Positions 11,645-41,863 of a stretch of 51,428 nt of DNA are shown piece after piece. Below the pieces are notes generated by a model. That model was given only the letters and a program-made list of their open reading frames with translations, did not search any database and was not told where the DNA came from. Position 1 is the first letter of the stretch; each line of letters starts with the position of its first letter. The stretch lies in the NCBI GenBank assembly GCA_905187655.1, contig CAJJIV010000001.1:1-51428 (forward strand), in the 5' to 3' direction. The position numbers and the translations under genes were made by a program. The stretch is from an uncultured Eubacteriales bacterium. GTDB lineage: Bacteria > Bacillota > Clostridia > Christensenellales > UBA1242.

Positions 11645-11654
11645 GAGGCAGATT

Positions 11655-12155
11655 ATGGCACAATTAAACGTAAAAACTGGCGACAAAGTTGTTGTTATTA
11701 CTGGTAAAGATGCTGGTAAGCAAGGTAAGGTTCTTGCAACCAATCCAAGCAAAAACAGAATAGTTGTTGAAGGTGTGAACATAATCAGCCGTCACACAAA
11801 ACCAAGAACAGCACAAGAAACTGGCGGAATTATTAAAAAGGAAGGTACTATTGATGTATCTAACGTTATGATAGTTTGCCCAACTTGTGGAAAGCCTACA
11901 AGAGTTAAACATATGGTAGTTGATGGCAAAAGCGTTCGCGCATGTAAATGCGGAGCTGTGCTAGATACCAAGTTTGAAAAACAGGCTAAAAAGAAAGACA
12001 ATTCTAAGGATAAAAAAGAGGCCAAAAAGCCTACAACCGAAGAAAAAGAAACTAAAAAGTCGACAAAACTAGACAAGAAAGATGCACCTGCAACCAAGTC
12101 TAACACAAAAAATAAAGCAGAAAGTGTTAGAATCAGAAGAAAACAGGAAATGTAA
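11655..12155 (+). CDS. rplX: 50S ribosomal protein uL24, long form (Cys knuckle plus Lys-rich tail)
   Basis: KOW-type N-terminus (KTGDKVVVITGKDAGKQGKV). CPTC...CKC cysteines. ~60-aa K-rich C-terminal extension. Confidence 0.95.
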   Translation: MAQLNVKTGDKVVVITGKDAGKQGKVLATNPSKNRIVVEGVNIISRHTKPRTAQETGGIIKKEGTIDVSNVMIVCPTCGKPTRVKHMVVDGKSVRACKCGAVLDTKFEKQAKKKDNSKDKKEAKKPTTEEKETKKSTKLDKKDAPATKSNTKNKAESVRIRRKQEM

Positions 12156-12173
12156 TTTTTAAGGAGATAAACA

Positions 12174-12728
12174 ATGGAAAATAAAGAAATGAACAGACTT
12201 AAAGCCAAATACCTTAAAGAAGTTGTTCCTGCACTAGAAAAAAAGTTTGGTTACAAAAACATTAACCAAGTTCCAAAAATTGAAAAGATTGTTCTTAACA
12301 TGGGTCTTGGCGATGTTAAGGATAACAGCAAGTCACTTAACCTTGCAGTTGAAGAACTTGGTCTTATTGCAGGTCAAAAGCCAATTGTAACAAAGGCAAA
12401 AAAGTCAGTCGCAAACTTTAAAGTTCGTGAAGGAATGAACATTGGTGCTAAGGTTACTTTAAGAGGCACAAAAATGTATGAATTCTTAGATAGATTTATA
12501 TCTATTGCATTGCCACGAGTTAGAGACTTTAGAGGCGTAAACCCAAATTCATTTGATGGAAGAGGTAGTTTTTCATATGGCGTTAAGGAACAATTAATAT
12601 TCCCAGAAATCGTTTATGACAAAATTGAAAAAATCCGTGGGTTTGATGTAGCAATTGTTACAACTGCTAAAACTGATGAAGAAGCAAGAGAATTATTAGC
12701 GTTAATGGGTATGCCATTTAAGAAATAA
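12174..12728 (+). CDS. rplE: 50S ribosomal protein uL5
   Basis: Conserved uL5 sequence (NRLKAKY...). AAGGAG SD. Confidence 0.97.
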
Positions 12729-12742
12729 CGAAGGAGATAATT

Positions 12743-12928
12743 ATGGCAAAAAAAGCACTTATAAACAAACAACAAGGCAAACAAAAATATAGCACTCGTG
12801 AGTATACAAGATGCTCAATCTGTGGACGTCCTCATGCCGTTCTTAAAAAATATGGTATCTGCCGTATTTGTTTCAGAGAACTAGCATACAAGGGTGAAAT
12901 CCCAGGTGCTAAGAAAGCTAGTTGGTAA
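12743..12928 (+). CDS. rpsN: 30S ribosomal protein uS14, short zinc-binding (type Z) form
   Basis: 61 aa with CxxC...CxxC and a terminal ...KASW. Confidence 0.97.
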
Positions 12929-12947
12929 AATTTAGGAGGAAATTAAA

Positions 12948-13346
12948 ATGATAGTAACAGATCCTATTGCAGATATGTTAACAAGAATTAGAAATGCACA
13001 GACCTCTAGGCACGAAACCGTAACAATTCCTGATTCTAAAATTAAAAGAGCCATCGCTGAAATTCTTTTAGCAGAAGGATACATTTCTAAGGTTGAATAT
13101 ATTGAGGACAAAGTTCAAGGAAATATAAAAATCACACTAAAATACACCGAAGATAACAAAAAAGTTATCAGTGGATTAAAGAGAATTTCTAAACCAGGTT
13201 TAAGAATTTATGCAAATGCAGATGAATTGCCAAGAGTTCTTAACGGACTAGGAATTGCAATTGTATCTACTAGCAAAGGTGTACTAACAGACAGGGAAGC
13301 AAGAAAACTTGGCCTTGGTGGCGAAATTCTTGCTTACGTATGGTAA
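12948..13346 (+). CDS. rpsH: 30S ribosomal protein uS8
   Basis: Conserved uS8 sequence ([14 protein letters not shown]). Confidence 0.98.
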
Positions 13347-13360
13347 GGAGGTAATTAAAT

Positions 13361-13921
13361 ATGTCAAGAATAGGAAGATTACCAATTGAATTACCAGAAA
13401 AAGTTACTGTTGATATAACTGCTGAAAATGTTGTTTTAGTAACAGGTCCACTTGGAACTCTAAGACAAGAAGTTGATAGCGTTATTAAGGTAGAAAAAGG
13501 AACTCATAACGATAAGCCAGCACTAATCTTAATTCGTTCTAGCGACGACAAAGAAATAAAGGCTAAACACGGTTTGTATCGTGCCTTAATTTATAATATG
13601 GTTAAGGGAGTTACCGAAGGTTATAGCAAAAACCTTACAATTAACGGTGTAGGTTTTAAGTGTTCGGTAAGTGGAAATAAATTAGTATTAAACATCGGTT
13701 TTTCACACCCTGTTAATTTTGAATTTCCAAACGACATTAAAATCACCTGCCCATCTGCAACTGAAATTAAGGTAGAAGGCTGTGACAAAACAAAGGTTGG
13801 TCAGGTTGCTGCCGATATTAAGGCACTTAAACCAGTTGAACCATACCACGCTTATGGCATTAGATACACTGATCAATATGTCCTAAGAAAAGAAATTAAA
13901 AAGGCTGCTAAGAAGAAATAA
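13361..13921 (+). CDS. rplF: 50S ribosomal protein uL6
   Basis: Conserved uL6 sequence (MSRIGRLPIELP). Confidence 0.97.
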   Translation: MSRIGRLPIELPEKVTVDITAENVVLVTGPLGTLRQEVDSVIKVEKGTHNDKPALILIRSSDDKEIKAKHGLYRALIYNMVKGVTEGYSKNLTINGVGFKCSVSGNKLVLNIGFSHPVNFEFPNDIKITCPSATEIKVEGCDKTKVGQVAADIKALKPVEPYHAYGIRYTDQYVLRKEIKKAAKKK

Positions 13922-13932
13922 GGAGAAAAGGT

Positions 13933-14301
13933 ATGATTAAGAAAATTGATAAAAACTCTGTTCGTAAAGCAAAGCAAAAAAGAATTAGAGCAACATTATC
14001 TGGTACTTCGGCTCGTCCAAGACTAAATGTATACCGTTCTTTAACTAATATTTATGCACAAGTTATTGATGATGAAAAGGGTGTAACACTTTGCAGTTCA
14101 TCTACAATGGAAAAGGGAATTAAGGCAAAGCTTGCCGGAAAGACCAAATCTGAACAAGCATATATGATTGGTGAGGATATTGCAAAAAAGGCTATCAAAA
14201 AAGGTATTAAAGAAGTGGTATTTGATCGTGCTGGTTACATCTTCACTGGCAGGGTAGCAAAAGTTGCTGAAGGCGCTAGAAACGCTGGATTGAATTTTTA
14301 G
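13933..14301 (+). CDS. rplR: 50S ribosomal protein uL18
   Basis: Conserved uL18 sequence (RPRLNVYRSL.NIYAQVIDD). Confidence 0.97.
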   Translation: MIKKIDKNSVRKAKQKRIRATLSGTSARPRLNVYRSLTNIYAQVIDDEKGVTLCSSSTMEKGIKAKLAGKTKSEQAYMIGEDIAKKAIKKGIKEVVFDRAGYIFTGRVAKVAEGARNAGLNF

Positions 14302-14319
14302 GATAGGAGAGAGTAAAAA

Positions 14320-14838
14320 ATGGCAAAAGTAGAAAGAACAAAAAAAGAAGCACCTGAAAAGAAAGATGAATTTGAAAAAGTTACCGCCGATATACGCCGT
14401 GTTACAAAGGTTGTTAAGGGTGGTAGAAATATGAGATTCTCTGCTCTTGTTGTCGTTGGCGACAAAAAGGGTAAGGTAGGAATTGGTCTTGGCAGAGGTG
14501 CCGAAGTTTCAATTGCTATGGACAAAGCAGGTCTTGAAGCAAAGAAACACATAACTGAAATACCATTAAAAGACACCACTATTCCACACGAAGTTATAGG
14601 AAAGTTTGAAAAAACCAAGGTTATTTTAATGCCAGCCAAGAAAGGTAATGGTATCATTGCTGGTGGTAGTGTAAGAACTGTTGTTGAACTTGCAGGAATT
14701 AGAGATATTACTACAAAGTTATATGGTTCAAATAACCCAGTTAACTGCGTTAAAGCAACTCTAAACGGATTAATGCAACTAAGAAGCGCTGAAGAGATTG
14801 CTAAACTTCGTGGCAAAAGTGTAGATGAAATCTTATAG
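14320..14838 (+). CDS. rpsE: 30S ribosomal protein uS5
   Basis: Conserved uS5 sequence (RVTKVVKGGR...FSALVVVGD). Confidence 0.97.
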   Translation: MAKVERTKKEAPEKKDEFEKVTADIRRVTKVVKGGRNMRFSALVVVGDKKGKVGIGLGRGAEVSIAMDKAGLEAKKHITEIPLKDTTIPHEVIGKFEKTKVILMPAKKGNGIIAGGSVRTVVELAGIRDITTKLYGSNNPVNCVKATLNGLMQLRSAEEIAKLRGKSVDEIL

Positions 14839-14849
14839 GAGAGAGAAGT

Positions 14850-15182
14850 ATGGAAACAAAAACTAACAGTACAACAAAAAAGGCAACTAAAAAAGTTGAT
14901 GCTCCTGTAGAAAAGAAAAGTGCGGTAAAAACAACTGAAACTGTTGCTAAAAAAGAAACTGCAACCGCAGTTAAAAAACCAGCAACCAAAAAGAATGCTG
15001 AAAAAATGCTTAAAATTACATTAATTAAAAGCACAAACGGCGCACTAGAAAAGCAAAAAAGAACTGTTGAGGCTTTAGGTCTTAGAAAAATTAGAAGTTG
15101 TGTTACAAAGCCAGATAACGCTTGCACACGCGGAATGATTTTTGTTGTAAGACACATGGTTTCAGTAGAAGAAGTTAAGTAG
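14850..15182 (+). CDS. rpmD: 50S ribosomal protein uL30 with a 52-aa N-terminal K/T/A-rich extension
   Basis: Canonical uL30 core begins at M53 (MLKITLIKS...). Only the 14850 ATG has a strong SD (AGGAGAGAG), 12 nt after the rpsE stop. Confidence 0.9.
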   Translation: METKTNSTTKKATKKVDAPVEKKSAVKTTETVAKKETATAVKKPATKKNAEKMLKITLIKSTNGALEKQKRTVEALGLRKIRSCVTKPDNACTRGMIFVVRHMVSVEEVK

Positions 15183-15201
15183 AAAATAGGAGAGTTGAGT
15201 T

Positions 15202-15645
15202 ATGAATATACAAAATTTGTCACCAGCCCCAAATTCTACCTTTAACAACAAACGAGTTGGTAGGGGTATGGGCTCTGGTCACGGAAAGACAAGTGGTAAA
15301 GGTCATAAAGGACAAAACGCCAGAAGCGGTGGTGGAGTTCGCCCAGGTTTTGAAGGCGGTCAGATGCCACTATTGCGTAGGATTCCAAAACGTGGCTTTA
15401 CTAACAACTGGGCTAAAGAATACACAATTATTAATGTAGGACAACTTAACAGTTTGGAACCAAACACAATTGTTACCGCAGAAATGCTAAAGACAAAAGG
15501 AATGATTTCAAAAGTAGAGAAGTTTGGTCTTAAAGTTATTGGTAATGGAGAATTAACTGTTCCACTAACAGTAAAGGCTAACAAGTTCTCGGAGTCGGCA
15601 GTTCAAAAAATCCAAAAAGCCGGCGGTAGTGTTGAGGTGATTTAA
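15202..15645 (+). CDS. rplO: 50S ribosomal protein uL15
   Basis: Conserved uL15 sequence ([19 protein letters not shown]). Confidence 0.97.
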
Positions 15646-16955
15646 TGTTCAAAACGTTAGCAGGTGCATTTAAAAACAAAGAAATAAGAAAAAAATTAAT
15701 AATAACTGTTTTGTTATTATTGGTTTACAGGCTTGGCTGTTATTTGCCAATTCCTGGAATTAATGCTGAAGCATATGGGTTATCTATTAGCGAAGATACC
15801 GTTGGTGTACTTAGCTTATTAAACTCGGTAACTGGTTCAGCACTAGAAAATGGCTCGTTTCTTGCACTTGGCATAACGCCTTATATTAACGCATCAATTA
15901 TAGTGCAACTTTTAGCAGTTGGTATTCCTGCCCTAGAAAGGCTTTCTAAGGAAGGCGATGAAGGCAGAAAGAAAATGAATATGATTACAAAAATTATTGC
16001 AATCGTACTTGCAATTGCCCAAGGTGTTGGAACGGTAATTGGATTTGGAAAATCTAGTTTGGTTAACATTTTTGGTGCAGGATGCCCAATTTGGGTAACT
16101 GGAGCATTTGTAGTAATTCTAATGGTTGCAGGAACTTGCTTTACAATGTGGCTAGGTGATCGTATTACCGAGCAAAATGTTGGAAATGGTATTTCATTAA
16201 TTATCTTTGTTGGTATAATGAGTACTGCAGGACTATCAATATTAAATGCCTTTAAGAATATTTTCAGCGGAAATTTAAACGCTCTTTGGGAACTATTAGG
16301 ATTCTTGGCATTAACAGTTTTAATTTTTGCACTAATTGTTTTTGTAGATTTGGCAGAACGCAAAATTCCAGTTCAGTATGCAAAGCAAATTAAGGGACGC
16401 AAAATGTTTGGTGGACAGTCAAGTTACATTCCAATGAAAATAAACGCCAGTGGTGTTATGCCAATAATTTTTGCATCAGCAATAATAACTTTCCCAAGTT
16501 TAATTATGCAACTATTTGGTGTTACACCAGAAAGTGGGTGGTTTGCGAAATTCTATTACAATTACCTTGGAACAGGTAGCGTAGTATATAGCATTTTAGT
16601 TGGCTTGTTAATATTGTTCTTCGCATATTTTTATGCACAAATTCAATTTAACCCAGCCGATGTAAGCCAAAACATTCAACAACACGGTGGATTTATTCCG
16701 GGCATAAGACCAGGGAAGGCAACTACCGATTACTTAAAGCGAGTAAGCAACAGAATTACATTGTTTGGTGCAATATTCCTTGCATTTATTGCAATTGTAC
16801 CATCTGTAATATTTAGACTTGTTGCAGGTGATCAACTAGAATTATTAAACGCATTTACTGCAACTGGTATGCTAATTGTAGTAAGCGTAGCCATAGAATT
16901 TGGAACACAACTAGAAGCACAACTTATGATGAAGCGACACAAAAATATCTTATAG
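15645..16955 (+). CDS. secY: Preprotein translocase subunit SecY
   Basis: 436-aa multi-TM protein with SecY motifs (LGI.PYI.ASII.QLL). TAATG overlap with rplO. Confidence 0.97.
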   Translation: MFKTLAGAFKNKEIRKKLIITVLLLLVYRLGCYLPIPGINAEAYGLSISEDTVGVLSLLNSVTGSALENGSFLALGITPYINASIIVQLLAVGIPALERLSKEGDEGRKKMNMITKIIAIVLAIAQGVGTVIGFGKSSLVNIFGAGCPIWVTGAFVVILMVAGTCFTMWLGDRITEQNVGNGISLIIFVGIMSTAGLSILNAFKNIFSGNLNALWELLGFLALTVLIFALIVFVDLAERKIPVQYAKQIKGRKMFGGQSSYIPMKINASGVMPIIFASAIITFPSLIMQLFGVTPESGWFAKFYYNYLGTGSVVYSILVGLLILFFAYFYAQIQFNPADVSQNIQQHGGFIPGIRPGKATTDYLKRVSNRITLFGAIFLAFIAIVPSVIFRLVAGDQLELLNAFTATGMLIVVSVAIEFGTQLEAQLMMKRHKNIL

Positions 16956-21798: not shown

Positions 21799-22647
21799 AT
21801 GAAAATCCTAAACGGAAAGGATTTGGCTACCACAATTAAAGAAGAGATTAAAACAGAAATACAAAATGACTATATACTTAAGGGCAAAAGTGCACCAACA
21901 TTGGCGGTGGTTTTAGTTGGAGATAATCCTGCAAGCGAAATTTATGTGAGAAATAAGGTAAAAGCCTGTGAATATGTGGGACTTGGTAGTTTAGTCGAAC
22001 GACTGCCCCAAACTGCCACAGAGGCTGAAATTTTGGCTAAAATTGATATGTTAAACAAAAACAATGACATTTCTGGCATTCTAGTGCAACTTCCTTTGCC
22101 CAATAATTTAAACGAAACCAAGGTAATAGAGGCAATTGACCCTAATAAAGATGTAGATGCCTTAAGTTATATAAACAAGGGGAAATTGGTGTCAGGCACA
22201 AATATTATTGCACCCTGCACCGCAAGTGGAATAATAGATATACTAAAAATGAACGGCATAGAAATAAGTGGAAAAAGAGCAGTTGTTGTAGGAAGAAGTC
22301 AATTGGTTGGAAGACCGGTTGAAATATTATTAACCCAGAACAATGCAACTACCACCATTTGCCATAGCCGAACACAAAATTTAAAAGAAATAACAGCTTC
22401 GGCCGACATATTGGTTGTTGCTATAGGCAAACCAAACTTTATAACCGCTGAATATGTTAAAGAAGGTGCGGTGGTAATAGATGTTGGAATAAACAGGGTA
22501 AATGGCAAGGTGGTAGGAGATTGTGATTATAATAATTTACTAGAAAAAGTTGGAGCAATTACTCCTGTGCCTGGAGGTGTTGGACCTATGACAATCACAG
22601 AATTATTAAAAAACACGCTTAAACTTGCAAAGTGTCAAGAGAAATAA
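21799..22647 (+). CDS. folD: Bifunctional methylenetetrahydrofolate dehydrogenase/cyclohydrolase
   Basis: FolD motifs (VGDNPAS..YV, GRS.LVGRP, PGGVGPMT). ATG at 21799 follows AAAGGAGG. Confidence 0.93.
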   Translation: MKILNGKDLATTIKEEIKTEIQNDYILKGKSAPTLAVVLVGDNPASEIYVRNKVKACEYVGLGSLVERLPQTATEAEILAKIDMLNKNNDISGILVQLPLPNNLNETKVIEAIDPNKDVDALSYINKGKLVSGTNIIAPCTASGIIDILKMNGIEISGKRAVVVGRSQLVGRPVEILLTQNNATTTICHSRTQNLKEITASADILVVAIGKPNFITAEYVKEGAVVIDVGINRVNGKVVGDCDYNNLLEKVGAITPVPGGVGPMTITELLKNTLKLAKCQEK

Positions 22648-22739
22648 AAATTTTTATACATATTTACCGAAAAATAAAATGGGTCTAGACAAAAAACAGA
22701 AATTGTGCTAATATATTTATCGTAAACAAATAAAATCAT

Positions 22740-22768
22740 TTTACAATCTCATCGGATTTTGGTACAAT
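22740..22768 (+). promoter_or_regulatory. Candidate promoter of the accessory cassette
   Basis: TTTACA, 17-nt spacer, TGg-TACAAT. A second candidate is TAGACA-18-TGc-TAATAT at 22685-22714. Confidence 0.5.
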
Positions 22769-22800
22769 AATTATTGATTAAAATTTGAGGTTTGTTTTAT

Positions 22801-23133
22801 ATGAAGACATATGTTTACCCAGCCGTTATTTATGAAAACAAAGATGGCACTTATTATGCATCTATTATAGACCTTAACTTGTTGGCCGTTGGCGATACCG
22901 AACAAGATGCATTTATTCAAGCAAGAAATAGTTTAAAATCTTATTTTGAATTGTCGGCAAGATTTGACACCGAGGTGCCAGAACCATCAGATTTTAAACT
23001 AATTAAATCCAAATATCCAAAGCAAACTGTGGTTATGCTAGATGTATTGGTAAACGAAAGTGACCAAATACCAACCAAAGAAGACCAAAAGTACAAAGAT
23101 TTTATGAAATTGTTCTTTGATGAAGGTGAATAA
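22801..23133 (+). CDS. HicB-like antitoxin-fold (UPF0150-like) protein with no recognisable DNA-binding domain
   Basis: N-terminus YVYPAVIYENKDGTYYASIIDL...GDTEQDAFIQARNSLKSY fits the HicB N-domain pattern (Y-P-A...DG-Y...G-T-E-A). Confidence 0.55.
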   Translation: MKTYVYPAVIYENKDGTYYASIIDLNLLAVGDTEQDAFIQARNSLKSYFELSARFDTEVPEPSDFKLIKSKYPKQTVVMLDVLVNESDQIPTKEDQKYKDFMKLFFDEGE

Positions 23134-23147
23134 GGAGGCATAAAGTT

Positions 23148-23450
23148 ATGGATAAAGATTATCAAACTGACTTAGTTGTTCTTGCGCTTGCAGTTGGTTT
23201 TCAAACGGTGGCAAAGGACAAGAATATATATTTGACGACAATTTACAAAAAACAAACAAAAATGTACCCTTTTAACGAAAAGCAAGATGATATGCTATGT
23301 GGAAAGAGCGCCGAGATTTTGGCAATTATAGATGAAAGACTTGGTGTTAAAACCGACAGTAAAGACCTTAACAAAAGATACAAAGTTTTTTACGAAGCTC
23401 TTGCCGATGAAAATCATCCATTTTGGAAAATTGCAAAAGCAAATATGTAG
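23148..23450 (+). CDS. Hypothetical protein (100 aa)
   Basis: ORF with AAGGAGG SD, 14 nt after the previous stop. No recognised motif. Confidence 0.6.
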   Translation: MDKDYQTDLVVLALAVGFQTVAKDKNIYLTTIYKKQTKMYPFNEKQDDMLCGKSAEILAIIDERLGVKTDSKDLNKRYKVFYEALADENHPFWKIAKANM

Positions 23451-23458
23451 GAGGTTTT

Positions 23459-23671
23459 ATGAAAACAGTGAACAGAGCATATGGGGATTATGTTAAGCAA
23501 CTACTTGAAAAAGCGGGAGAAATTTTTAAAAACCTTACAACTGGTAAAACAGGAGAAGAAATCTTAAACAAAATAAGCACTGTTATAAAAAACGCTGAAA
23601 AGTGTTTAAAAGGTGAAATGCTTCTAGGTGGCACAATGCTTAATAAATTTATAGAGCCAACACTATCTTAA
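23459..23671 (+). CDS. Hypothetical small helical protein (70 aa)
   Basis: ATG at 23459 follows AGGAGG. The track start at 23423 lies inside the upstream gene. Confidence 0.55.
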   Translation: MKTVNRAYGDYVKQLLEKAGEIFKNLTTGKTGEEILNKISTVIKNAEKCLKGEMLLGGTMLNKFIEPTLS

Positions 23672-23683
23672 AGGAGAAATTTG

Positions 23684-24223
23684 GTGTCTACAAACTATCT
23701 AAAAGAAATAGCAACCACAATTGGTTGGCGTTTTGTTAACGATGGAGATAGATATGGTGTTTACGAATACATAAAGCAAGAAAACAAGTATGAATCTATC
23801 TGCCACATACTAAGAATTTATAATGACCCTAGTCAAGAAGAACTATATGAAATGTTTGAAACTCTTAAACGGGTTTTGCCACGAAAACTTAAAAAGGCAC
23901 TTGAAAAAATTACTAAGGGTGTAAAATTAGAAGAATTAGAAACGGTTGCTGACGTAATTAAATTTACGGTGGAAGAGTACAAATTTAAAACTGATTATGC
24001 CAAACTAAACGAGTATGGCAAGCTTTTAGGTGTTGACATACAAAAACTTGGATATAGTTTTAAGTATAAATTAACAAAAAAAGAGCGTGCAGAAATTTTG
24101 GCAAAAATTGAAATTGCCTTACCCATAGAAATTGCACCAATTTTGGGTAATATTAAAAAGGTGGATTACAAACTGGCATATATTAAAAAAAATAAGGCAA
24201 GTTTATTAGATAAAGAAGCATAA
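23684..24223 (+). CDS. Hypothetical protein (~179 aa)
   Basis: AAGGAG SD with GTG 7 nt downstream (TTG at 23681 is the alternative). No recognised motif. Confidence 0.6.
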   Translation: MSTNYLKEIATTIGWRFVNDGDRYGVYEYIKQENKYESICHILRIYNDPSQEELYEMFETLKRVLPRKLKKALEKITKGVKLEELETVADVIKFTVEEYKFKTDYAKLNEYGKLLGVDIQKLGYSFKYKLTKKERAEILAKIEIALPIEIAPILGNIKKVDYKLAYIKKNKASLLDKEA

Positions 24224-24229
24224 TATATA

Positions 24230-24273
24230 AGAGCAGATAAGTTAATGAGTATTGACTTTTCTGCTCTTTTGTT
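24230..24273 (+). terminator. Intrinsic terminator splitting the cassette into two units
   Basis: Stem agagcaga(t)aagt/actt(t)tctgctct followed by ttttgtt. Confidence 0.55.
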
Positions 24274-24280
24274 ATATTAT
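24252..24280 (+). promoter_or_regulatory. Promoter of the paralog array
   Basis: TTGACT (24252-24257), 17-nt spacer, TATTAT (24275-24280). Confidence 0.55.
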
Positions 24281-24312
24281 AATAATATAAATACACGAAA
24301 AGGAAGGCTTTA

Positions 24313-24885
24313 ATGACATTATTAACAGGATATTATGCTGACAAACAAAATTATGGCGAAATTGACCTTAATGCGTGTGCTGATAATTCCAAACGGGCTT
24401 ATATTAAATACCTAAAAGATTTGTGCAAACAGAGCATAAGCCTTGCCAAAGAATCTTTAACACATGGACATAAAAAAGAGGCTAAAAACAATTTAAATAA
24501 ATTTTATAATTACCATAAAAAACTTAATAAAATCAATCCGCTTAGTCCACTAGAATTTATAAATTATCTTAAAGACCAAGAAATTGACATTGCTGTTCAT
24601 AAACTGGGAGACATTGTAACAGAAATTAATTCTACAACTGGTGATAAAAGTTTTAAAACAAATAATAAATTGCAATACCAAAAAGATTATTTAATAAGGT
24701 ACATAACCGATTTGGCAAACCTTAAAGATAATAAAAGCATTGCAATTTTTTTGGCTCAAAGAGTTACCAGAACTTCCGGGGCTTCAGCAGAAAAGAGCAG
24801 TGTAGAAATACATTTAGATGTAGACTTAAAAAATGCATATGATAACTATTTAGAAAATCAAATGGACGATAAATTTAGTGATTAA
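24313..24885 (+). CDS. Hypothetical helical protein, paralog family member 1 (190 aa)
   Basis: AAGGAAGG SD. Shares three collinear motif blocks with the next three ORFs. Confidence 0.7.
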   Translation: MTLLTGYYADKQNYGEIDLNACADNSKRAYIKYLKDLCKQSISLAKESLTHGHKKEAKNNLNKFYNYHKKLNKINPLSPLEFINYLKDQEIDIAVHKLGDIVTEINSTTGDKSFKTNNKLQYQKDYLIRYITDLANLKDNKSIAIFLAQRVTRTSGASAEKSSVEIHLDVDLKNAYDNYLENQMDDKFSD

Positions 24886-24927
24886 CAAACAAAAATAAAA
24901 TATTAATAAAAGAAAGGGGGGAAAAAG

Positions 24928-25671
24928 ATGGCTTATTTATCAGAATTCGCATCAAAAATTAAGGAGCAATTTGGTTGCGATGGTTTAGCCCAAGAAACTA
25001 TTGATAGTGCAAAAGAAGTTGGCAAGCGAGTGTACTACGAAAAATTGCGTTACAAAAGTGTGGAATGTTTACAAATGGCAAAATGTCAAATGTCAAAAGG
25101 GGACAAAAAAAGTGCAAAAGCGTGGTTAGATGCACATAAGAAATTTCGCAAATTAGCAAAAGAAGTAAAGAATATGTCAACCAGCGCATTTTTTGCTAAG
25201 CTTGCACAACAAGAGAAAAGGGAAACAATGTATGTTCTGCAAGATATAATTGCAAAGTATGAAAAATTGGCAGGCAAAGAAAATCCTACCAAAGAACAAA
25301 AGCAACTGATGCAATATTATTCTGAAACAACCAAAGGATTGTATCAAATTTTGTCTGAATTGTATCAAAGTCCACAAATTGCCGAGTATTACCGAGCAAG
25401 CAAACTTGCTTATGATATGGGTGGTTGTAAAATTGATTTTAATAAAGAATTGCATGATGAATTAACTGGCAAAGCAAGAAAAATTGAGCCAGTAGTTTTA
25501 ACAGAAGACACTAAAACAACTTTACAAAGATTAGATAGTTTGTTTAATAAAGGTTATGACCTAAACGATAGCAAAAGCATATATCATCAATATTGTGCAA
25601 AATATGCTGTGGCACTTGGCTTGCAATTTGGCGTAATAAAGGGTCAAATACAACAAGGAGAAATTGAATAA
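24928..25671 (+). CDS. Hypothetical helical protein, paralog family member 2 (247 aa)
   Basis: GGGGGGA SD. Motif blocks shared with 24313, 25671 and 26150. Confidence 0.7.
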   Translation: MAYLSEFASKIKEQFGCDGLAQETIDSAKEVGKRVYYEKLRYKSVECLQMAKCQMSKGDKKSAKAWLDAHKKFRKLAKEVKNMSTSAFFAKLAQQEKRETMYVLQDIIAKYEKLAGKENPTKEQKQLMQYYSETTKGLYQILSELYQSPQIAEYYRASKLAYDMGGCKIDFNKELHDELTGKARKIEPVVLTEDTKTTLQRLDSLFNKGYDLNDSKSIYHQYCAKYAVALGLQFGVIKGQIQQGEIE

Positions 25672-26138
25672 TGGGTTCATTGATATTAGATTTTGGAACC
25701 AAGGTAACAAATTCAGATTGGGAATCTAGCAAAAATTACGAACAGGCATTAAGAGCGGGTAGAACGACATATCTTGAATTTGCAATATCGATAGCAAAAA
25801 CACCAAAAGCCCAAAAAGAAGTTGCGAAGTTAAGTGAATTGTCGCTAAAAGAGTTTTACATTTTATTGCGTGAAAGAGAGATTAAACTTGCTACATCTGG
25901 TGGGTTTGGAAAGCAGAATGAACAAGCGGAGAAATATGCAACAGAAATAAGAAATTGGCCAATGTTAACTAATTATTTTTTAGCTAGTAGATTGGTTGAA
26001 TCCAACGGAAGGTCAAGTCAAATTGGTTATTGTCAAATGGAGATAGACAAATATTTAGGACGTGCTAAAAGACAGTATATAACTCCAACCCCATATTGTC
26101 AGCGAGATAACCAAAATATAGGAAACGAAAATGAATAA
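25671..26138 (+). CDS. Hypothetical helical protein, paralog family member 3 (155 aa)
   Basis: TAATG overlap with the upstream gene. Motif blocks LSLKEFYILLREREIKLA and FLASRLVESNGRS. Confidence 0.7.
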   Translation: MGSLILDFGTKVTNSDWESSKNYEQALRAGRTTYLEFAISIAKTPKAQKEVAKLSELSLKEFYILLREREIKLATSGGFGKQNEQAEKYATEIRNWPMLTNYFLASRLVESNGRSSQIGYCQMEIDKYLGRAKRQYITPTPYCQRDNQNIGNENE

Positions 26139-26149
26139 GGAGATTGTTC

Positions 26150-26758
26150 GTGGCATTATTTAATGATGTAAAAGAAGATATAAGAAAGCTTTCTTCAGCC
26201 GAAATTAACGATATTTTTGAAGATGCAAAATATATTTACCGATTAAAACTAGAAAAAGAAAGATATATATTAAATTCAATGTACGAGAACCAAAACAAAG
26301 ATAAAAACCACGAGGTGTTTGTAAGGAGTTGCGGAGCAAGACTTAATTCACTATCAAAGTCCATTGATTTAATTGAAGAAACCAAGGCTGAAGATTTCGC
26401 AGATATAATGGTCATTCAGTTTAAAGATGCGTTAACAGAATTGATGTCAGATTACCTTAAAGCATATATACCAAACCTTAAAAGAGCACAAACCATTGGA
26501 GAAGGCCATAAGGCATATACCTGGCAAAAAAAAGCGCTTAGGACCAAAGAGTTTTATGGATTAGCAATAGGAATTGTTAACGAAATACAATTAGAAATGA
26601 TTTCTGAGGACTTAAAAGATATTGTAAAACCCTATTTATGTCAACAAGTTGTTTTACAAAAAGGTGAAGTGGTAAATAATTGGAAGAGTCTATTAGATAA
26701 AGTAATAAAAGGTAAGGCACTAATTCAGTTAACGCAAGAAGACCAAACTGAACAATAA
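26150..26758 (+). CDS. Hypothetical helical protein, probable paralog family member 4 (~202 aa)
   Basis: AAGGAG SD with GTG 7 nt downstream (the track TTG at 26144 is too close). Weaker shared blocks LEKERY and YLCQQVVLQKGEV. Confidence 0.6.
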   Translation: MALFNDVKEDIRKLSSAEINDIFEDAKYIYRLKLEKERYILNSMYENQNKDKNHEVFVRSCGARLNSLSKSIDLIEETKAEDFADIMVIQFKDALTELMSDYLKAYIPNLKRAQTIGEGHKAYTWQKKALRTKEFYGLAIGIVNEIQLEMISEDLKDIVKPYLCQQVVLQKGEVVNNWKSLLDKVIKGKALIQLTQEDQTEQ

Positions 26759-26771
26759 ATTAAAATATTAA

Positions 26772-26800
26772 AAACCGCTAAAGTGTTTCTTTAGCGGTTT
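26772..26800. terminator. Bidirectional terminator between the cassette and serS
   Basis: Perfect 12-bp stem aaaccgctaaag/ctttagcggttt with T-runs on both strands. Confidence 0.85.
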
Positions 26801-26811
26801 AATTTTATTTT

Positions 26812-28101
26812 TTAGTTCTTTTTAGGTTCAATTTTTGTTTTGCCACCCATATATGGTCGTAGTACTGTTGGAATATTTACACTGCCATCTTCATTTAAGT
26901 GATTTTCAATAAGTGCTATTAGCATTCTTGGTGGGGCAACAACGGTGTTATTTAGTGTGTGTGCAAAGTGGTTGCCGGTTGCATCTTTAAACTTAATTCC
27001 AAGTCTTCTTGCTTGGGCATCGGTAAGATTACTGCAAGAACCAACTTCAAAATATTTTTGCTGTCTAGGGCTCCAAGCCTCTACATCTAGACTTTTATAT
27101 TTAAGGTCGGCAAGGTCGCCTGAACAACAAATAAGTGTTCTAACAGGAATTTCCATAGAAACAAACAAATCCACAGTGTTTTGCCAAAGTTTTTTATACC
27201 AAGTTTCACTTTCTTCTGGCTTGCAAATTACTATCATTTCTTGCTTTTCAAATTGATGAATGCGGTAAATTCCTCGTTCTTCAATGCCGTGAGCACCTTT
27301 TTCTTTTCTAAAACAAGGCGAATAGCTAGTAAGAGTAAGTGGCAATTTCTTTTCATCAATAATTGTATTCATAAATCTGCCAATCATAGAATGTTCACTG
27401 GTGCCAATTAAATAAAGGTCTTCGCCTTCAATTTTGTACATCATATTGTCCATTTCATCAAAACTCATTACACCGGTAACTACATCGCTTCTAATCATAT
27501 ATGGTGGAATTACATAGGTAAAACCACGGTCAATCATAAAATCTCGAGCATAACTAAGTACGGCACTATGCAATCTGGCAATGTCCCCTGTTAAGTAATA
27601 AAAACCTTGCCCGCTTGTTCGCCTTGCACTATCTACATCTATGCCATCAAGATTTTCCAAAATGTCTAGATGGTAGGGAATATCAAAAGGTTTAAGTTTT
27701 GGTTCCAAAAATCTTTGACCCTCCACATTTTTGCTGTCATCTTCGCCAAGTGGCACATCATCAGCAATAATATTAGGAATGGTCATCATAATTTTTTTAA
27801 GTTCGCCGTTAAGCAAATTTTGATTTTCTTCTTCGGCAGAAATTTTTGAGTTTATTTCATTAACTTTTGCCTTGTTTTTGTCGGCTTCGGCGATATTCTT
27901 TTCTTTCATAAATTTGCCAATTAGTGAAGAAAGAGTGTTTCGTTCTGCTCTAAGGGTTTCTGCCTTAGTTTTGCTTTCTCTTATTTGTTTGTCTAGTTCA
28001 ACAGCCTTGTCAACCAAATTAAGCTTATGGTTTTGAAACTTTTTTTTAATATTTTCTTTAACAAGGTCTGGATTGGTTCTTAGCAAATTAATATCTATCA
28101 T
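26812..28101 (-). CDS. serS: Serine--tRNA ligase
   Basis: 429 aa with an N-terminal coiled-coil arm and class II core (TSEHS, FRKE.G..G...RG..R.HQF.K.E). Confidence 0.95.
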   Translation of the reverse strand: MIDINLLRTNPDLVKENIKKKFQNHKLNLVDKAVELDKQIRESKTKAETLRAERNTLSSLIGKFMKEKNIAEADKNKAKVNEINSKISAEEENQNLLNGELKKIMMTIPNIIADDVPLGEDDSKNVEGQRFLEPKLKPFDIPYHLDILENLDGIDVDSARRTSGQGFYYLTGDIARLHSAVLSYARDFMIDRGFTYVIPPYMIRSDVVTGVMSFDEMDNMMYKIEGEDLYLIGTSEHSMIGRFMNTIIDEKKLPLTLTSYSPCFRKEKGAHGIEERGIYRIHQFEKQEMIVICKPEESETWYKKLWQNTVDLFVSMEIPVRTLICCSGDLADLKYKSLDVEAWSPRQQKYFEVGSCSNLTDAQARRLGIKFKDATGNHFAHTLNNTVVAPPRMLIALIENHLNEDGSVNIPTVLRPYMGGKTKIEPKKN

Positions 28102-29421: not shown

Positions 29422-29772
29422 ATGAATATTTATACATCTTCAAGATACTATAACACAAAAAAAGTTATTATATCCAATTACGGAACTCCAAAAGAACTTG
29501 CCGATTTTGAAATGGACTTTGCATCGCTTAATTACTGTTTAAATTCAGTTGAAAAGAGTTTGGCAGATCGCAAAATAGGTGAAGTTTTTAACCTGGACCC
29601 AAATGTAATTAATTTATCAAAGTCACAGCCCAATATGGTAAAGATTCTTAGTGAAATAGAAAGTTGTGGCGATCGCTATAATCCCAAAGAGCAGAAAATA
29701 GTTTCCGCTGTGCTTAAAAAAGTGTACTTTGATAAATACATAAAAACAAAAGAAGAACAAGAGCAAAAATAA
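29422..29772 (+). CDS. Hypothetical protein (116 aa)
   Basis: AAGGAG SD. No recognised motif. Confidence 0.55.
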   Translation: MNIYTSSRYYNTKKVIISNYGTPKELADFEMDFASLNYCLNSVEKSLADRKIGEVFNLDPNVINLSKSQPNMVKILSEIESCGDRYNPKEQKIVSAVLKKVYFDKYIKTKEEQEQK

Positions 29773-31494: not shown

Positions 31495-33336
31495 ATGAAA
31501 GTTACAAGTAAAGAGTTGCGAGATACTTGGATTAAATTTTATGAAAGTAAAGGACACAAAAATATTGGTGCGGTATCGCTAATTGGTGATGGAACAACAG
31601 GTGTTATGTTCAACGTTGCAGGAATGCAACCTTTAATGCCTTATCTACTTGGCAAAAAGCATCCAGATGGTACCAGACTTTGCAACGTTCAGGGCTGTAT
31701 AAGAACGGTTGATATTGATGAAGTGGGCGATGATTGCCACCTTACATTTTTTGAGATGATGGGGAATTGGAGTCTTGGCGACTATTTTAAAAAAGAGAAG
31801 ACTGCATGGACGGTGGAATTACTTACTGAAAAGTTTAAACTAGACATAAACAAATTGTGTTCAAGTGTTTTTGCCGGCAATGAAAGTGCTCCACGAGATG
31901 AAGAAACAGTCAATTTACTAAAAGACCTAGGAATTAAAGAAGAGAATATTTTTTATCTTGGGAAAAAAGAAAATGGTGAAGAAAACAACTGGTGGGAACT
32001 AGATGGCACAGTTGGCACACCTTGTGGTCCGGATAACGAGTGGTTTTATCCGTTGACAGATAAAAAGTGTTGTGATAATTGCGACATAAATTGCAAGTGT
32101 GGTCGATTTGTAGAAGTCGGTAACGATGTATATATGCAATACAAAAAAACAGCAAATGGTTATGAGCCTCTTGAAAACAAAAATGTTGACACAGGTTTTG
32201 GCTTTGAGCGTTGCTTAATGTTTTTAAATGGCTTAACTGATGTGTATAAAACAGACCTATTTGCAGATGTAATTAAAATAATTGAAACTGAATGTGGTGC
32301 AAAGTATGGCGAAGATGAGGGCAAAACCAGAATGATGCGTATTATTGCCGACCATACTAGAACAAGTGTTATGCTAATTGGTGATGTTAATGGAATAGTT
32401 CCAAGCAATGTTGGGGCTGGTTACATTTTAAGAAGAGTTATGCGAAGAGCAATAAGATATACAAGGCAACTTGGAGCAACACCTGACCTATTGAACAAAA
32501 TAGCCAAGCATTTTATAGAAGATATTTACTCCGAAGCTTATCCACTATTAAAAGAGAAAGAAGACTACATTTTGGCTGAAATCACCAAAGAAGTTGAAAA
32601 ATTTGATAAAATGCTGATTCAAGGCAGCAAAGAGTTTGAAAAAGTAATAGTTGGCATAGAACGAAAAAGAGAGTTTTTGCAAAAGACCGACCCTAATGCG
32701 GTAGTAGAAAATGTTATTAATGGCAAAACAGCTTTTAGATTATATGATACTTTTGGATTTCCTTTAGAATTAACAACCGAAATGGCAACCGAGCGAGGCT
32801 TTAAAGTTGATGTAGATGGGTTTAAAGAAGCCTTTAAAGAGCATCAAGAAAAGAGCCGAACGGTAGACAAAGGAACATTTAAAGGTGGCTTAGATGATAC
32901 TGGTGAACAGACCACTAAATTGCATACGGCGTGTCACTTGTTACTTTCTGGTCTTAGACACAAATTTGGCACCGAAGTGGAACAAAAGGGAAGCAATATA
33001 ACAAGTGAAAGATTAAGGTTTGATTTTAACTTTAATCGCCCGCTAACTTCGGAAGAAATAAAAGAACTAGAAGATTATGTAAATAATGCAATTAAAAGCG
33101 GAATAAAGGTAGAGAGAGTAGAACTTCCTTTTGCTGAGGCATTAAAACAAGGTGCCTATGGTGTTCATAAGGCCGAGCCAACCGACATTGTTTCGATATA
33201 TAAAATTGGGGACTTAGATTTTCAAATATGCGGTGGCCCTCATGTTAAAAACACAAGCGAAATAGGTAAATTTAAAATTACCAAAGAGCAGAGTAGCAGT
33301 AGTGGCATAAGAAGAATTAGGGCTGAAATAGAATAG
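31495..33336 (+). CDS. alaS: Alanine--tRNA ligase, compact form (613 aa) without a C-Ala domain
   Basis: Class II AlaRS motifs (HLTFFEMMGNWSLGDYFK, RFVEVGNDVYMQY). Editing-domain HTACHLL and CGGPHV. Ends right after ...GIRRIRAEIE. Confidence 0.85.
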   Translation: MKVTSKELRDTWIKFYESKGHKNIGAVSLIGDGTTGVMFNVAGMQPLMPYLLGKKHPDGTRLCNVQGCIRTVDIDEVGDDCHLTFFEMMGNWSLGDYFKKEKTAWTVELLTEKFKLDINKLCSSVFAGNESAPRDEETVNLLKDLGIKEENIFYLGKKENGEENNWWELDGTVGTPCGPDNEWFYPLTDKKCCDNCDINCKCGRFVEVGNDVYMQYKKTANGYEPLENKNVDTGFGFERCLMFLNGLTDVYKTDLFADVIKIIETECGAKYGEDEGKTRMMRIIADHTRTSVMLIGDVNGIVPSNVGAGYILRRVMRRAIRYTRQLGATPDLLNKIAKHFIEDIYSEAYPLLKEKEDYILAEITKEVEKFDKMLIQGSKEFEKVIVGIERKREFLQKTDPNAVVENVINGKTAFRLYDTFGFPLELTTEMATERGFKVDVDGFKEAFKEHQEKSRTVDKGTFKGGLDDTGEQTTKLHTACHLLLSGLRHKFGTEVEQKGSNITSERLRFDFNFNRPLTSEEIKELEDYVNNAIKSGIKVERVELPFAEALKQGAYGVHKAEPTDIVSIYKIGDLDFQICGGPHVKNTSEIGKFKITKEQSSSSGIRRIRAEIE

Positions 33337-35794: not shown

Positions 35795-35872
35795 TTATTA
35801 GATACTAATTAATATGGGGGAGCGTTTAAACCGACTAGACTTGGGTAAATGCTCCTTTGCTTTAAGGGGAAA

Positions 35873-37756
35873 ATGGACACAAAAAAATCTTTATATTTAT
35901 TTCAACAAGGCACCTATTACAACTCATATGAATTTATGGGTTGTCATTTGTGTTCAATTAATAAAGTAGATGGTGCCATTTTCCGAGTTTTTGCTCCTAA
36001 TGCTAAAGCAATAAGTGTTGTAGGTGATTTTAATGCCTGGAACGAAAAAGATGGGCAGATGCATCGCATAGATAATGGAGCAGTATGGGAAAAATTTGTA
36101 CCAAACGTACAAGTATATGACAACTATAAGTTTTTGGTAACAAATGCAAAGGGTGAAAAAGTTTTTAAGGCGGACCCATATGCTTTTCATAGTGAAACAA
36201 ATGGTCAAACAGCATCAAAGGTATACAATTTATCTGGTTACACTTGGGCAGACCAAGACTATCAAAAGTCTAAAAACATAACCAATCACTACACCTCTCC
36301 AATGAATATTTATGAAGTAAACTTTTGTTCATGGCAAAGGTATCCAGATGGTAATTATTTTTCTTATCGCAAACTTGCCGAAGAATTAATACCATATGTT
36401 GTTAAAATGGGCTATACACACATAGAAATTATGCCACTAACAGAATACCCTTATGATGGGTCTTGGGGCTATCAACCAACAGGGTACTTTTCGGTAACAA
36501 GCAGGTTTGGCACCCCACACGACTTTATGTATTTTGTAGATTGCTGTCATCAAAATAATATTAGTGTAATACTAGATTGGGTACCAGCACATTTCCCTAA
36601 AGATGAGCACGGCTTAATTGAATGGGACGGAACTTGTTTATATGAGTATAATAGTTGGGACCGCAAAGAGCATAAATCATGGGGAACTCGCCGTTTTGAT
36701 TATGGCAAGCCAGAAGTACAAAGTTTTTTAATTTCTAGTGCAATGTTCTTTTTAAAAGTCTTTCATATAGATGGCTTGCGGGTAGATGCCGTGGCATCAA
36801 TGTTATACCTAGACTACGATAAAAAGAATGGGGAGTGGGTTCCAAATTGTTATGGAAACAACAAACACCTAGAAGCCATTTCTTTCTTGCAAAAATTAAA
36901 TTGTGCCGTATTTAAAGAATTTCCTAGTGCACTAATGATAGCCGAAGAGTCTACTGCTTGGCCACTTGTAACAAAACCAACTGACATAGGCGGGCTTGGG
37001 TTTAATTATAAATGGAACATTGGCTGGATGAATGACACTCTAGAATATATTTCAATGGACCCATTTTTTAGAAAAGACAATCATAGCAAAGTCACCTTTT
37101 CAATGTTCTATGCGTTTAGTGAAAACTTTGTTTTGCCAATTTCGCATGATGAAGTAGTTTATGGCAAGCGGTCATTAATTAATAAAATGGCAGGTGATTA
37201 TGACCAAAAATTTAATTTAATGCGTGCGTTTTATGGTTATATGATGGCACACCCTGGTAAAAAACTTACTTTTATGGGCTCTGAAATTGGGCAATTTGAT
37301 GAGTGGGATAATACAAAATCGATTGAATTTTTTTTGTTAGACTATCCTAAACATAAAGAGCTTAATGACTATGTAAAAGACCTTAATTGGTTTTATTTAA
37401 CTCATAGCGAACTATACAACATAGACTTTTCTTGGGACGGATTTGAATGGATAATATCCAATGACACTCGCAACAATGTGGTTGTGTTTGCTCGAAAAAA
37501 CAACAAGGGCGAAAAATTGATTTGTGTAACAAACTTTTCGCCAGAGGAATTGTCTGGTTACCGAGTGTACCTAGATAAAGGAACTTACGAAGAAGTATTT
37601 AATTCCGATTTGAAGAAATATGGTGGTACAGGTATAACAAATGGAAAAATAAAAACTAAGCCAGATGAAAACAATAAAAAGGCAAACTACATAACCTTAA
37701 AAATACCGCGCAATAGCACAATGTATTTTAAAAAAGTAGAAACAAAAAAAATATAA
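35873..37756 (+). CDS. glgB: 1,4-alpha-glucan branching enzyme
   Basis: GH13 regions (ILDWVPAHF, IDGLRVDAVASM, IAEEST, SHDEVV). ATG at 35873 follows AAGGGGAAA. Confidence 0.93.
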   Translation: MDTKKSLYLFQQGTYYNSYEFMGCHLCSINKVDGAIFRVFAPNAKAISVVGDFNAWNEKDGQMHRIDNGAVWEKFVPNVQVYDNYKFLVTNAKGEKVFKADPYAFHSETNGQTASKVYNLSGYTWADQDYQKSKNITNHYTSPMNIYEVNFCSWQRYPDGNYFSYRKLAEELIPYVVKMGYTHIEIMPLTEYPYDGSWGYQPTGYFSVTSRFGTPHDFMYFVDCCHQNNISVILDWVPAHFPKDEHGLIEWDGTCLYEYNSWDRKEHKSWGTRRFDYGKPEVQSFLISSAMFFLKVFHIDGLRVDAVASMLYLDYDKKNGEWVPNCYGNNKHLEAISFLQKLNCAVFKEFPSALMIAEESTAWPLVTKPTDIGGLGFNYKWNIGWMNDTLEYISMDPFFRKDNHSKVTFSMFYAFSENFVLPISHDEVVYGKRSLINKMAGDYDQKFNLMRAFYGYMMAHPGKKLTFMGSEIGQFDEWDNTKSIEFFLLDYPKHKELNDYVKDLNWFYLTHSELYNIDFSWDGFEWIISNDTRNNVVVFARKNNKGEKLICVTNFSPEELSGYRVYLDKGTYEEVFNSDLKKYGGTGITNGKIKTKPDENNKKANYITLKIPRNSTMYFKKVETKKI

Positions 37757-37771
37757 TACAAGGGAAGAAAA

Positions 37772-39421: not shown

Positions 39422-39434
39422 AAAGGAGATAATA

Positions 39435-41855: not shown

Positions 41856-41863
41856 AGAAATAT

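Follow-up and report, generated by a model that had tools for sequence, protein, structure and literature searches.

Two operons of different age between folD and serS in an uncultured Christensenellales bacterium, one of them headed by a HicB-like gene

The commonest genomic context of the toxin HicA is a hicBA module with a small HicB that lacks a DNA-binding domain (PMC10865869). A conserved histidine is required for both the RNase activity and the toxicity of HicA (PMC11594946), and a minimal genome is reported to keep inactive toxin homologs along with a solo HicB-like gene (PMC13621843). Here, we analyze a stretch of 51,428 nucleotides (contig CAJJIV010000001.1, hereinafter the window) from an uncultured bacterium of the Christensenellales, in which eight same-strand open reading frames (ORFs), o1 to o8, fill the interval from folD to serS and the first of them codes for a HicB-like protein (Table 1).

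The eight ORFs make up two units. Unit 1 (o1–o4, 22801–24223) is an ancient, vertically inherited, core-like operon rather than an island, and is restricted to one clade of gut bacteria, uncultured and labelled Christensenellales by NCBI. Unit 2 (o5–o8, 24313–26758) is a young, very rapidly evolving operon with its own promoter that is limited to two species and lies in the slot of variable content that separates o4 from serS. We hold this evolutionary and structural description of the locus with high confidence, and to the fuller reading, namely two operons of different age with unit 1 derived from a hicBA module, we assign a probability of roughly 0.55. A previous description of the window made from its letters alone (hereinafter the sequence-only reading) had taken the same ORFs for a single cassette wedged into housekeeping genes. 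What it observed is partly confirmed and largely right, but its interpretation as one island is not supported: o1–o4 have core synteny in 11 contexts, whereas o5–o8 can indeed be described as an accessory insertion.

Distribution, inheritance and transcription signals of o1–o4

We reached the clade through the o4 family and through a search with a combined profile of o5, o6 and o7, and read 11 related contexts besides that of the window's own species. The architecture of unit 1 is identical in all of them, with o1 followed either by o2 and o3 or by one fused gene, and then by o4. In six of the 11 (L092, L102, L103, L106, L111 and L112) it lies in the same rplQ–(folD)–...–serS neighborhood as in the window. 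L092, a 561-kb contig from a related species, has rplQ–folD, the same eight genes, five extra genes and then serS, while L102 has rplQ–folD–o1–o2–o3–o4 with other genes ahead of serS. In L111 and L112 the order is rplQ–folD–o1–o2–o3–o4–serS, and in L106 it is the same without folD, the slot behind o4 being empty in all three. Other members of the clade show unit 1 in further settings: glyA–folD–o1–o2–o3–o4 and then a gene for a DUF6273 protein in L099–L101; o1, one gene for 157–200 amino acids (aa), o4 and then rpsL–rpsG–fusA in L108–L110, which are more distantly related; and o1, one gene for 171–213 aa and o4 in L104 and L107, with dnaB upstream of o1 in L104. Unit 1 lacks the two-gene, patchy and mobile character of HicAB loci, being a set of four genes in synteny beside core operons in 11/11 contexts. 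A scan of GTDB genomes with folD was uninformative on presence and absence, its best match being 56% identical and 0/80 loci syntenic.

Because the architecture is the same in the 11 contexts and the neighborhood in six of them, and because the promoter region is likewise conserved (see below), we regard unit 1 as vertically inherited and not as an island. Its divergence can be gauged against that of housekeeping proteins in L092: o1 (81% identity), o2 (79%) and o4 (71%) are conserved at the level of ordinary enzymes such as those encoded by folD (79.5%) and rlmL (77%), with o3 at 40% and the products of rpoA, rplQ and serS at 95%, 93.5% and 93%, respectively. Within the species, contigs with an identical o1 or o6 carry the same genes wherever they are long enough, all eight being present on each contig that spans the interval, and no presence/absence polymorphism of the eight genes was seen among them. 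The comparison of the folD–serS interval that the sequence-only reading had called for hence shows no presence/absence variation within the species or for o1–o4, and does show it for o5–o8 between species. That reading had also named what would speak against it, namely the same genes at the same position across the lineage with annotated core functions. For o1–o4 the shared position is what we find, although not the annotated function, and the view of a single novel eight-gene island therefore fails for the first half of the block.

About 110 bp 5′ of o1, including two promoter-like sites (P1 and P2), can be aligned in six species with protein differences of 20–50% (alignment A8: window 22680–22770, L092 7060–7160, L102, L111, L099 and L106), and the columns of the -35 and -10 boxes are invariant. 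P2 is the candidate that the sequence-only reading had placed upstream of o1 and P1 is an additional one; the conservation of both agrees with its statement that the block has promoters of its own. The two sites are tandem extended -10 promoters, with -35 boxes that are mostly of the TAGACAAA type. By these signals, unit 1 is shown to be equipped for transcription from two conserved housekeeping-style promoters and is predicted to end at its own terminator. The palindrome GTCTAGAC, which overlaps the -35 box of P1, is kept in four of the six aligned species and absent from L102 and L111. A 12-mer in the conserved DNA upstream of o1 occurs a single time in the window, and the motif GGTCTAGACAAA, for which a second copy was sought across the window, is unique, providing no evidence of a regulon within it.

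The 89 nt between o4 and o5 contain a terminator-like hairpin with a U-tract that ends unit 1, and the -35 box of P3, the promoter-like site of unit 2, is embedded in the descending arm of this hairpin. In the L092 counterpart both arms have changed but the stem is still fully paired (-23.7 kcal/mol), and the TTGACT and TATAAT-like boxes of P3 are retained. The split into two four-gene units by an internal terminator and promoter, as proposed from the letters of the window, is thus borne out, as is the strong bidirectional terminator that o8 and serS have in common. A GGAG-type Shine–Dalgarno site precedes each of the eight ORFs, which are separated by 8–14 nt within o1–o4 and by -1 to 42 nt within o5–o8; as all eight are moreover intact in L092, they were correctly described as real genes.

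HicB-like and HicA-like features of the unit 1 proteins

The naming of the first gene as HicB-like stands: o1 matches PHROG 497 (HicB-like, E = 2e-13), and a profile of its 11 orthologs retrieves HicB chains as five of the seven top matches in the PDB (E = 0.02–0.4). The orthologs of o1 also have precomputed Pfam matches to PF15919/PF15970, and o1 possesses the N-terminal domain of HicB (partial RNase H-like), which marks the antitoxin of HicAB systems and is followed by a conserved C-terminal motif, YKxFMKxFFDEGE (11-species alignment A12). Neither a ribbon-helix-helix nor a helix-turn-helix (HTH) DNA-binding domain was found in o1, and no component of unit 1 has a recognizable DNA-binding domain.

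The next protein, o2, has no sequence match in Pfam, PHROG or the PDB; its family displays two invariant motifs, LxxLAxxxGF and LxIxDxRLG (alignment A5). An AlphaFold2 model from the single sequence predicts an α-β-β-β-α arrangement with two additional helices (pLDDT 66), the Foldseek match of which to the HicA chain 6g26_F is not significant (prob 0.60, TM 0.53, root-mean-square deviation 3.5 Å, E = 0.58). o4 founds a family of 26 clusters with 39–99% identity and is modeled with confidence from a 24-sequence alignment (pLDDT 90, pTM 0.81) as an N-terminal α-β-β-β-α domain (residues 4–63) and a helical C-terminal domain with the invariant motif LPxExAPxLGKIKKxDYKI (alignment A4). Foldseek finds nothing for o4 in the PDB at E < 0.1. 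Its N-terminal domain shows local matches to the HicA chain 6g26_F (prob 0.72, target TM 0.57) and to 1whz (prob 0.69, target TM 0.59), which we take to be a HicA-like protein, and in BFVD the best local match is to a viral protein of 56 aa (prob 1.0, TM 0.71). HicA toxins (PF07927) are proteins of 50–100 aa with an α-β-β-β-α fold resembling that of dsRBDs, the domains that bind double-stranded RNA, and both o2 and the N-terminal domain of o4 are predicted to have this topology, with weak Foldseek matches (prob 0.6–0.72, E = 0.6–1.0). o3 has orthologs of 51–85 aa, and it is this gene together with o2 that is replaced by the one gene of 157–213 aa in distant relatives.

A few further candidates were set aside. 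o2 has a sub-cut-off match to Acb1 but is without the two HxT/S motifs of the latter, and the matches of o3 to MT0933 and of o4 to Thr_dehydrat_C are below cut-offs, inconsistent and best seen as noise. Pfam scans of the fused proteins of distant relatives, of the L092 orthologs and of the L102 slot genes were empty.

The order of o1 and then o2 mirrors the commonest hicBA architecture, and it is from this that we infer, with low confidence, the derivation of unit 1 from a hicBA-type module, in which a closely spaced gene for a putative HicA-fold protein comes after that for a small HicB devoid of a DNA-binding domain. In such a scenario, the catalytic histidine would have been lost and the unit would have become fixed as a non-toxic cellular function, with o1 binding o2, o4 or both at their dsRBD-like domains, as HicB covers HicA, and thereby modulating their binding to an RNA partner. 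Since the catalytic residue is absent and the locus is fixed beside translation-related operons under strong promoters, a domesticated, non-toxic derivative, with a HicB-like protein regulating dsRBD-like RNA-binding partners, would be the most economical account; as a mechanism, we put it forward as tentative and rather doubtful. That unit 1 repeatedly lies next to ribosomal-protein, serS and rpsL operons and has strong promoters would point towards a role in translation or RNA housekeeping. A bolder version, in which an exapted hicBA module (a HicB-like protein with two catalytically dead HicA-fold proteins) forms a fixed, strongly expressed and probably RNA- or ribosome-associated core complex throughout the clade of gut Christensenellales, and the slot behind it recruited o5–o7 as a new and quickly diversifying conflict family together with o8, appears to us more doubtful still.

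Several points weigh against the hicBA derivation and the roles proposed for unit 1 and, below, for unit 2. The link to HicA consists of topology and of non-significant Foldseek matches (E = 0.6–1.0), the model of o2 is of low confidence, and profile searches of Pfam, PHROG and the PDB with 24 members of the o4 family and six of the o2 family gave no match to HicA. Such searches are weak for this family, as Escherichia coli HicA itself recovers only its own entry in the PDB at E <= 10. Aligned by hhalign, o2 and the N-terminal domain of o4 pair in the first helix only (probability 0.9%), with no common origin detectable, and the descent of either from HicA cannot be shown by sequence. Neither the o2 family (A5) nor the o4 family (A4) has a conserved histidine, which excludes HicA-type chemistry; the catalytic histidine with a nearby glycine that typifies HicAB toxins is found in neither. 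The proximity of unit 1 to translation genes is circumstantial. Finally, the divergence of unit 2 could reflect just weak constraint, the ratio of nonsynonymous to synonymous polymorphism (pN/pS) of o8 within the species being 0.37 and not above 1.

An alternative is that unit 1 is an active toxin–antitoxin or abortive-infection module, in which o1 neutralizes a new toxin (o2 or o4), and that its fixation in the clade is incidental. The HicB N-terminal domain, which is what o1 consists of, is sufficient to neutralize HicA (PMC11594946; PMC13621843), the 14 nt between o1 and o2 resemble the spacing of compact hicBA pairs, and the palindrome at P1 might be an operator. Yet, o2 and o4 are devoid of the conserved histidine or Gly-His motif that HicA would need for toxicity, four genes are present instead of two, and the palindrome is missing in two species and has no recognizable DNA-binding domain to go with it. 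Lasting synteny beside core operons is also atypical of toxin–antitoxin loci, which are laterally mobile (PMC10865869). We therefore consider an active toxin improbable, and prefer the domesticated derivative to it.

The variable slot and the o5–o8 operon

Unit 2 is, as judged by sequence similarity, a set of three paralogs (o5, o6 and o7) and one unrelated gene (o8). Where four paralogs had been claimed, the relationship holds for the first three, with o5 and o6 matching each other at 33–39 bits (BLASTP E = 2e-6), o7 matching the L092 protein p6 (E = 1.7e-5), and two motifs, LSxxEF...EI and Y[FY]LASRLxxSNG, recurring in six copies including those of L092 (alignment A6); it does not extend to o8, which hhalign compares to the family with a probability of 0.3%. 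The sole match of o6 among 5.8 billion proteins is a 99% identical cluster, and the combined o5, o6 and o7 profile, searched against 1.84 billion representatives, retrieves the window's own and near-identical proteins and one remote protein, P0004 (E = 2e-7), which is the o7 ortholog on the L092 contig. No transmembrane segment was predicted in any of the eight proteins.

Unit 2 is present in the window's species and L092 only, the slot being empty in L106, L111 and L112 and occupied differently in L102 and L099. Its proteins in the window and in L092 are about 34% (o5, over 68 aa), about 23% (o6, not significant), 32% (o7) and 27% (o8) identical, and the two units have therefore diverged at very different rates. 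Within the species, unit 2 is fixed. Two haplotypes occur there, which differ by about 0.3–0.5% in most of the region, by about 0.3–0.7% over the surrounding 20 kb and by about 28 substitutions in the 337 bp of one tract in o8 (Table 1). Between them, o8 has pS = 0.093 and pN = 0.035, as compared to pS = 0.01–0.04 and pN = 0–0.005 for the flanking housekeeping genes, which suggests that the tract was imported by recombination or is a long-maintained divergent allele.

Such extreme divergence between two species, the lack of homologs elsewhere among the 1.84 billion representatives and the lowest GC content of the region in o5 (0.27–0.29) would also be expected if unit 2 were a group of functionless, recently born or decaying ORFs under neutral drift. 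Against this, the four ORFs have stayed open in two species with a 20% difference in folD, with similar lengths, Shine–Dalgarno sites and the same order, the motifs persist in six paralogous and orthologous copies, and the promoter/terminator pair is conserved. With the pN/pS of o8 likewise pointing to constraint, unit 2 appears to be maintained as coding sequence, and neutral drift is in our view a poor explanation. No frameshifted copy was found on the longer contigs with identical o1 or o6; the one variant, P0003, is an 889-bp contig with an o5 of scrambled C-terminus, which we set aside as a probable assembly artifact. Breaks inside o5 occur in several metagenome assemblies, among them GCA_900524185.1 (L118, L119 and L002).

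The content of the slot in relatives is diverse. In L092, positions 11506–16251 between p8 and serS code for a methyltransferase, a LysR regulator, an acetate kinase, a 472-aa unknown protein and a NUDIX protein, and these five extra genes show further turnover at the slot. The slot of L102 (10632–12134) holds two paralogs of 207 and 206 aa, which are 25% identical to each other, belong to no family and proved unrelated to o5–o8 when compared as candidate members of the o5–o7 family, together with a gene in divergent orientation for a 65-aa XRE-type HTH regulator. Following o1–o4 in L099 (11145–15749) and L100 (11016–15620) are genes for a 661-aa DUF6273 protein, a bAvd-like protein and a reverse transcriptase, an arrangement that resembles a diversity-generating retroelement; in L101 the DUF6273 gene is present and the reverse transcriptase is missing. 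For unit 2 itself, which would be subject to relaxed or diversifying selection, we propose, with low confidence, an accessory role of conflict-related or niche-specific type, the former being plausible but speculative.

Searches for known defence, phage and mobile elements were negative for both units. For o2–o8 nothing was found at the curated cut-offs of Pfam and NCBIfam and nothing above noise in PHROGs and PADLOC, in line with the statement that the products after the first gene match no recognized family. In PADLOC-DB 2.0, seven of the eight proteins have no match and o6 has a noise-level one to DrmMII (E = 0.0044, 14 bits) that is inconsistent and was discarded, leaving no known defence component in the block. 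The match of o1 is the only one in PHROGs, with none for o2–o8 or their families; IMG/VR yielded no relatives when scanned with o1, o4, o8 and a profile of the o7 family, and a tblastn search of o4 against the 50,697 phage genomes of INPHARED gave no match. The codon usage of the block shows no anomaly, GC at third codon positions being 0.22–0.31 in o1–o8 against 0.18–0.32 in the flanking housekeeping genes, and its slightly lower overall GC reflects amino-acid composition and not foreign codon usage. No tRNA gene lies within 24 kb of the block, no Rfam element or integrase is near it, the direct repeats flanking it are short chance matches and none is att-like, and the only transposase ORF is 17 kb downstream. 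The block thus has none of the marks of a genomic island, be it integrase or transposase, tRNA or repeat boundaries, deviant composition or presence/absence polymorphism within the species, and no homologs in the phage genomes and viral contigs covered by the above searches that would make it a prophage remnant. Neither unit shows signs of mobility, of phage origin or of belonging to a known defence system.

These results bear on the idea that all eight genes are one novel anti-phage defence or immunity island between housekeeping genes. The absence of known families in o2–o8, the frequency of HicB-like genes in toxin–antitoxin and defence loci (PMC10865869), the species-to-species variation of the slot behind o4 with its retroelement-associated gene in L099, and the polymorphism of o8 are what such an island would display. 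However, synteny, vertical inheritance and a conserved promoter characterize o1–o4 in many species, the halves are served by separate transcription signals and have diverged at very different rates, PADLOC offers no meaningful match, the composition is that of the flanks, and integrase, tRNA, flanking repeats and within-species variation are all lacking. We regard one eight-gene defence island as quite improbable. That the block is a remnant of a prophage or mobile element, with early or moron-type genes left after decay, is in turn highly improbable: o1 does match a phage HicB-like PHROG, phage early regions typically code for small helical orphan proteins and the N-terminal domain of o4 resembles a viral protein, but the above IMG/VR, INPHARED and PHROG searches returned nothing apart from the PHROG match of o1, att-like repeats and integrase are missing, and the position is the same across species.

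The sequence-only reading had judged the block not to be a classical mobile island, and in this it was right. Its further suggestion of a defence, immunity or phage-derived module found no positive evidence in PADLOC, PHROGs (o2–o8), IMG/VR (o1, o4, o8 and the o7 family) or INPHARED (o4), and the checks that it had recommended turned up no compositional difference from the flanks and, from PADLOC, just the discarded DrmMII match of o6.

Surroundings of the block and comparison with known systems

Table 1. Positions of the ORFs, predicted transcription signals and other features discussed in the text (window coordinates)
Feature	Position	Strand	Description
SRP RNA	579–842	-	large Bacillus-type signal recognition particle (SRP) RNA
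folD	21799–22647	+	upstream border of the block
Palindrome GTCTAGAC	22683–22690		overlaps -35 of P1
P1	22686–22714	+	promoter-like; TAGACA, 17 nt, TAATAT; TG before -10; 9/12 matches
P2	22740–22768	+	promoter-like; TTTACA, 17 nt, TACAAT; TG before -10; 10/12 matches
o1	22801–23133	+	110 aa; HicB N-terminal-domain protein
o2	23148–23450	+	100 aa; no family
o3	23459–23671	+	70 aa; poorly conserved
o4	23684–24223	+	179 aa; family founder
Unit 1 terminator	24229–24273	+	terminator-like hairpin, -23.4 kcal/mol, z = -6.45; then UUUUGUU
P3	24252–24280	+	promoter-like, for unit 2; TTGACT, 17 nt, TATTAT; 10/12 matches
o5	24313–24885	+	190 aa; o5/o6/o7 paralog family
o6	24928–25671	+	247 aa; o5/o6/o7 paralog family
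o7	25671–26138	+	155 aa; o5/o6/o7 paralog family; start overlaps o6 stop
o8	26150–26758	+	202 aa; unrelated to o5–o7; polymorphic tract 26296–26632
Bidirectional terminator	26772–26800	both	common to o8 and serS; 12-bp stem, -17.6 kcal/mol on each strand; z = -5.2 and -6.9
serS	26812–28101	-	downstream border of the block
Orphan gene	29422–29772		116 aa; no Pfam match
Alanyl-tRNA synthetase	31495–33336		613 aa
Glycogen-metabolism operon	35849–43648		glgB-like, glgA-like, phosphorylase, amylase
Transposase	44158–44943		IS3-type; rve and HTH_21 domains
tRNA-Met	51197–51273	-	

Some features outside the block deserve mention in their own right. No T-box was found upstream of serS, which follows rlmL after 60 nt and probably shares a transcript with it. 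A small orphan gene between rlmL and dnaB has a 44% identical counterpart in L092. The alanyl-tRNA synthetase of the window is short, as it is in relatives (596–612 aa); bacterial alanyl-tRNA synthetases usually have about 870 aa, and the window's version appears to be without the C-terminal part. The transposase ORF directly follows the glycogen-metabolism operon, and the SRP RNA and tRNA-Met are the sole Rfam and ARAGORN matches in the window.

If unit 1 is truly a domesticated hicBA module, an abundant uncultured gut lineage would offer a clear natural example of how a toxin–antitoxin module becomes a conserved function of the cell. Irrespective of this, three protein families without Pfam coverage are defined here (o2, o3 and o4), of which o4 has a confident model with no counterpart in the PDB. 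A further family, restricted in its lineage distribution and evolving fast, comes from unit 2; its locus is variable, and such loci are the usual source of new conflict systems. For annotation, the lesson is that uncharacterized genes amid housekeeping genes do not make an island: it was comparative context that separated the core from the accessory part.

Among described systems, the slot behind o4 may be compared with the variable accessory slots (hot spots or islets) between core genes, with which it shares a content that differs between species. Unlike these, the insertion between o4 and serS comes without recombinase, repeats or compositional shift, o5–o8 are not recognizable as defence genes, and the slot is fixed within the species. 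As for o1, the solo HicB-like minimal proteins and the retained inactive toxin homologs of reduced genomes (JCVI-syn3.0 MMSYN1_0080, MMSYN1_0281 and MMSYN1_0805; PMC13621843) offer a parallel: what is shared is a HicB N-domain protein that lacks both a DNA-binding domain and a canonical HicA partner, and the apparent retention of toxin–antitoxin-derived proteins for a cellular role. They belong to other organisms and are compared with o1 without a demonstrated sequence relationship, and o1, in contrast, has three conserved operon partners.

Unit 1 as a whole compares with class 2 hicBA (Gerdes 2024, mBio; PMC10865869). As in that class, a HicB-like gene comes first and is closely linked to a small gene, the HicB-like product carries the N-domain of HicB and lacks a DNA-binding domain, and the 100-aa protein encoded next, o2, has a predicted HicA topology. 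In contrast to class 2 hicBA, unit 1 shows neither a HicA sequence signature nor the conserved catalytic histidine and glycine; it comprises four genes, including that for the larger o4, which has the same topology at its N-terminus and is extended by helices; it has strong dual promoters of the housekeeping type; and, rather than being mobile and patchy, it is fixed and syntenic beside core operons across the clade.

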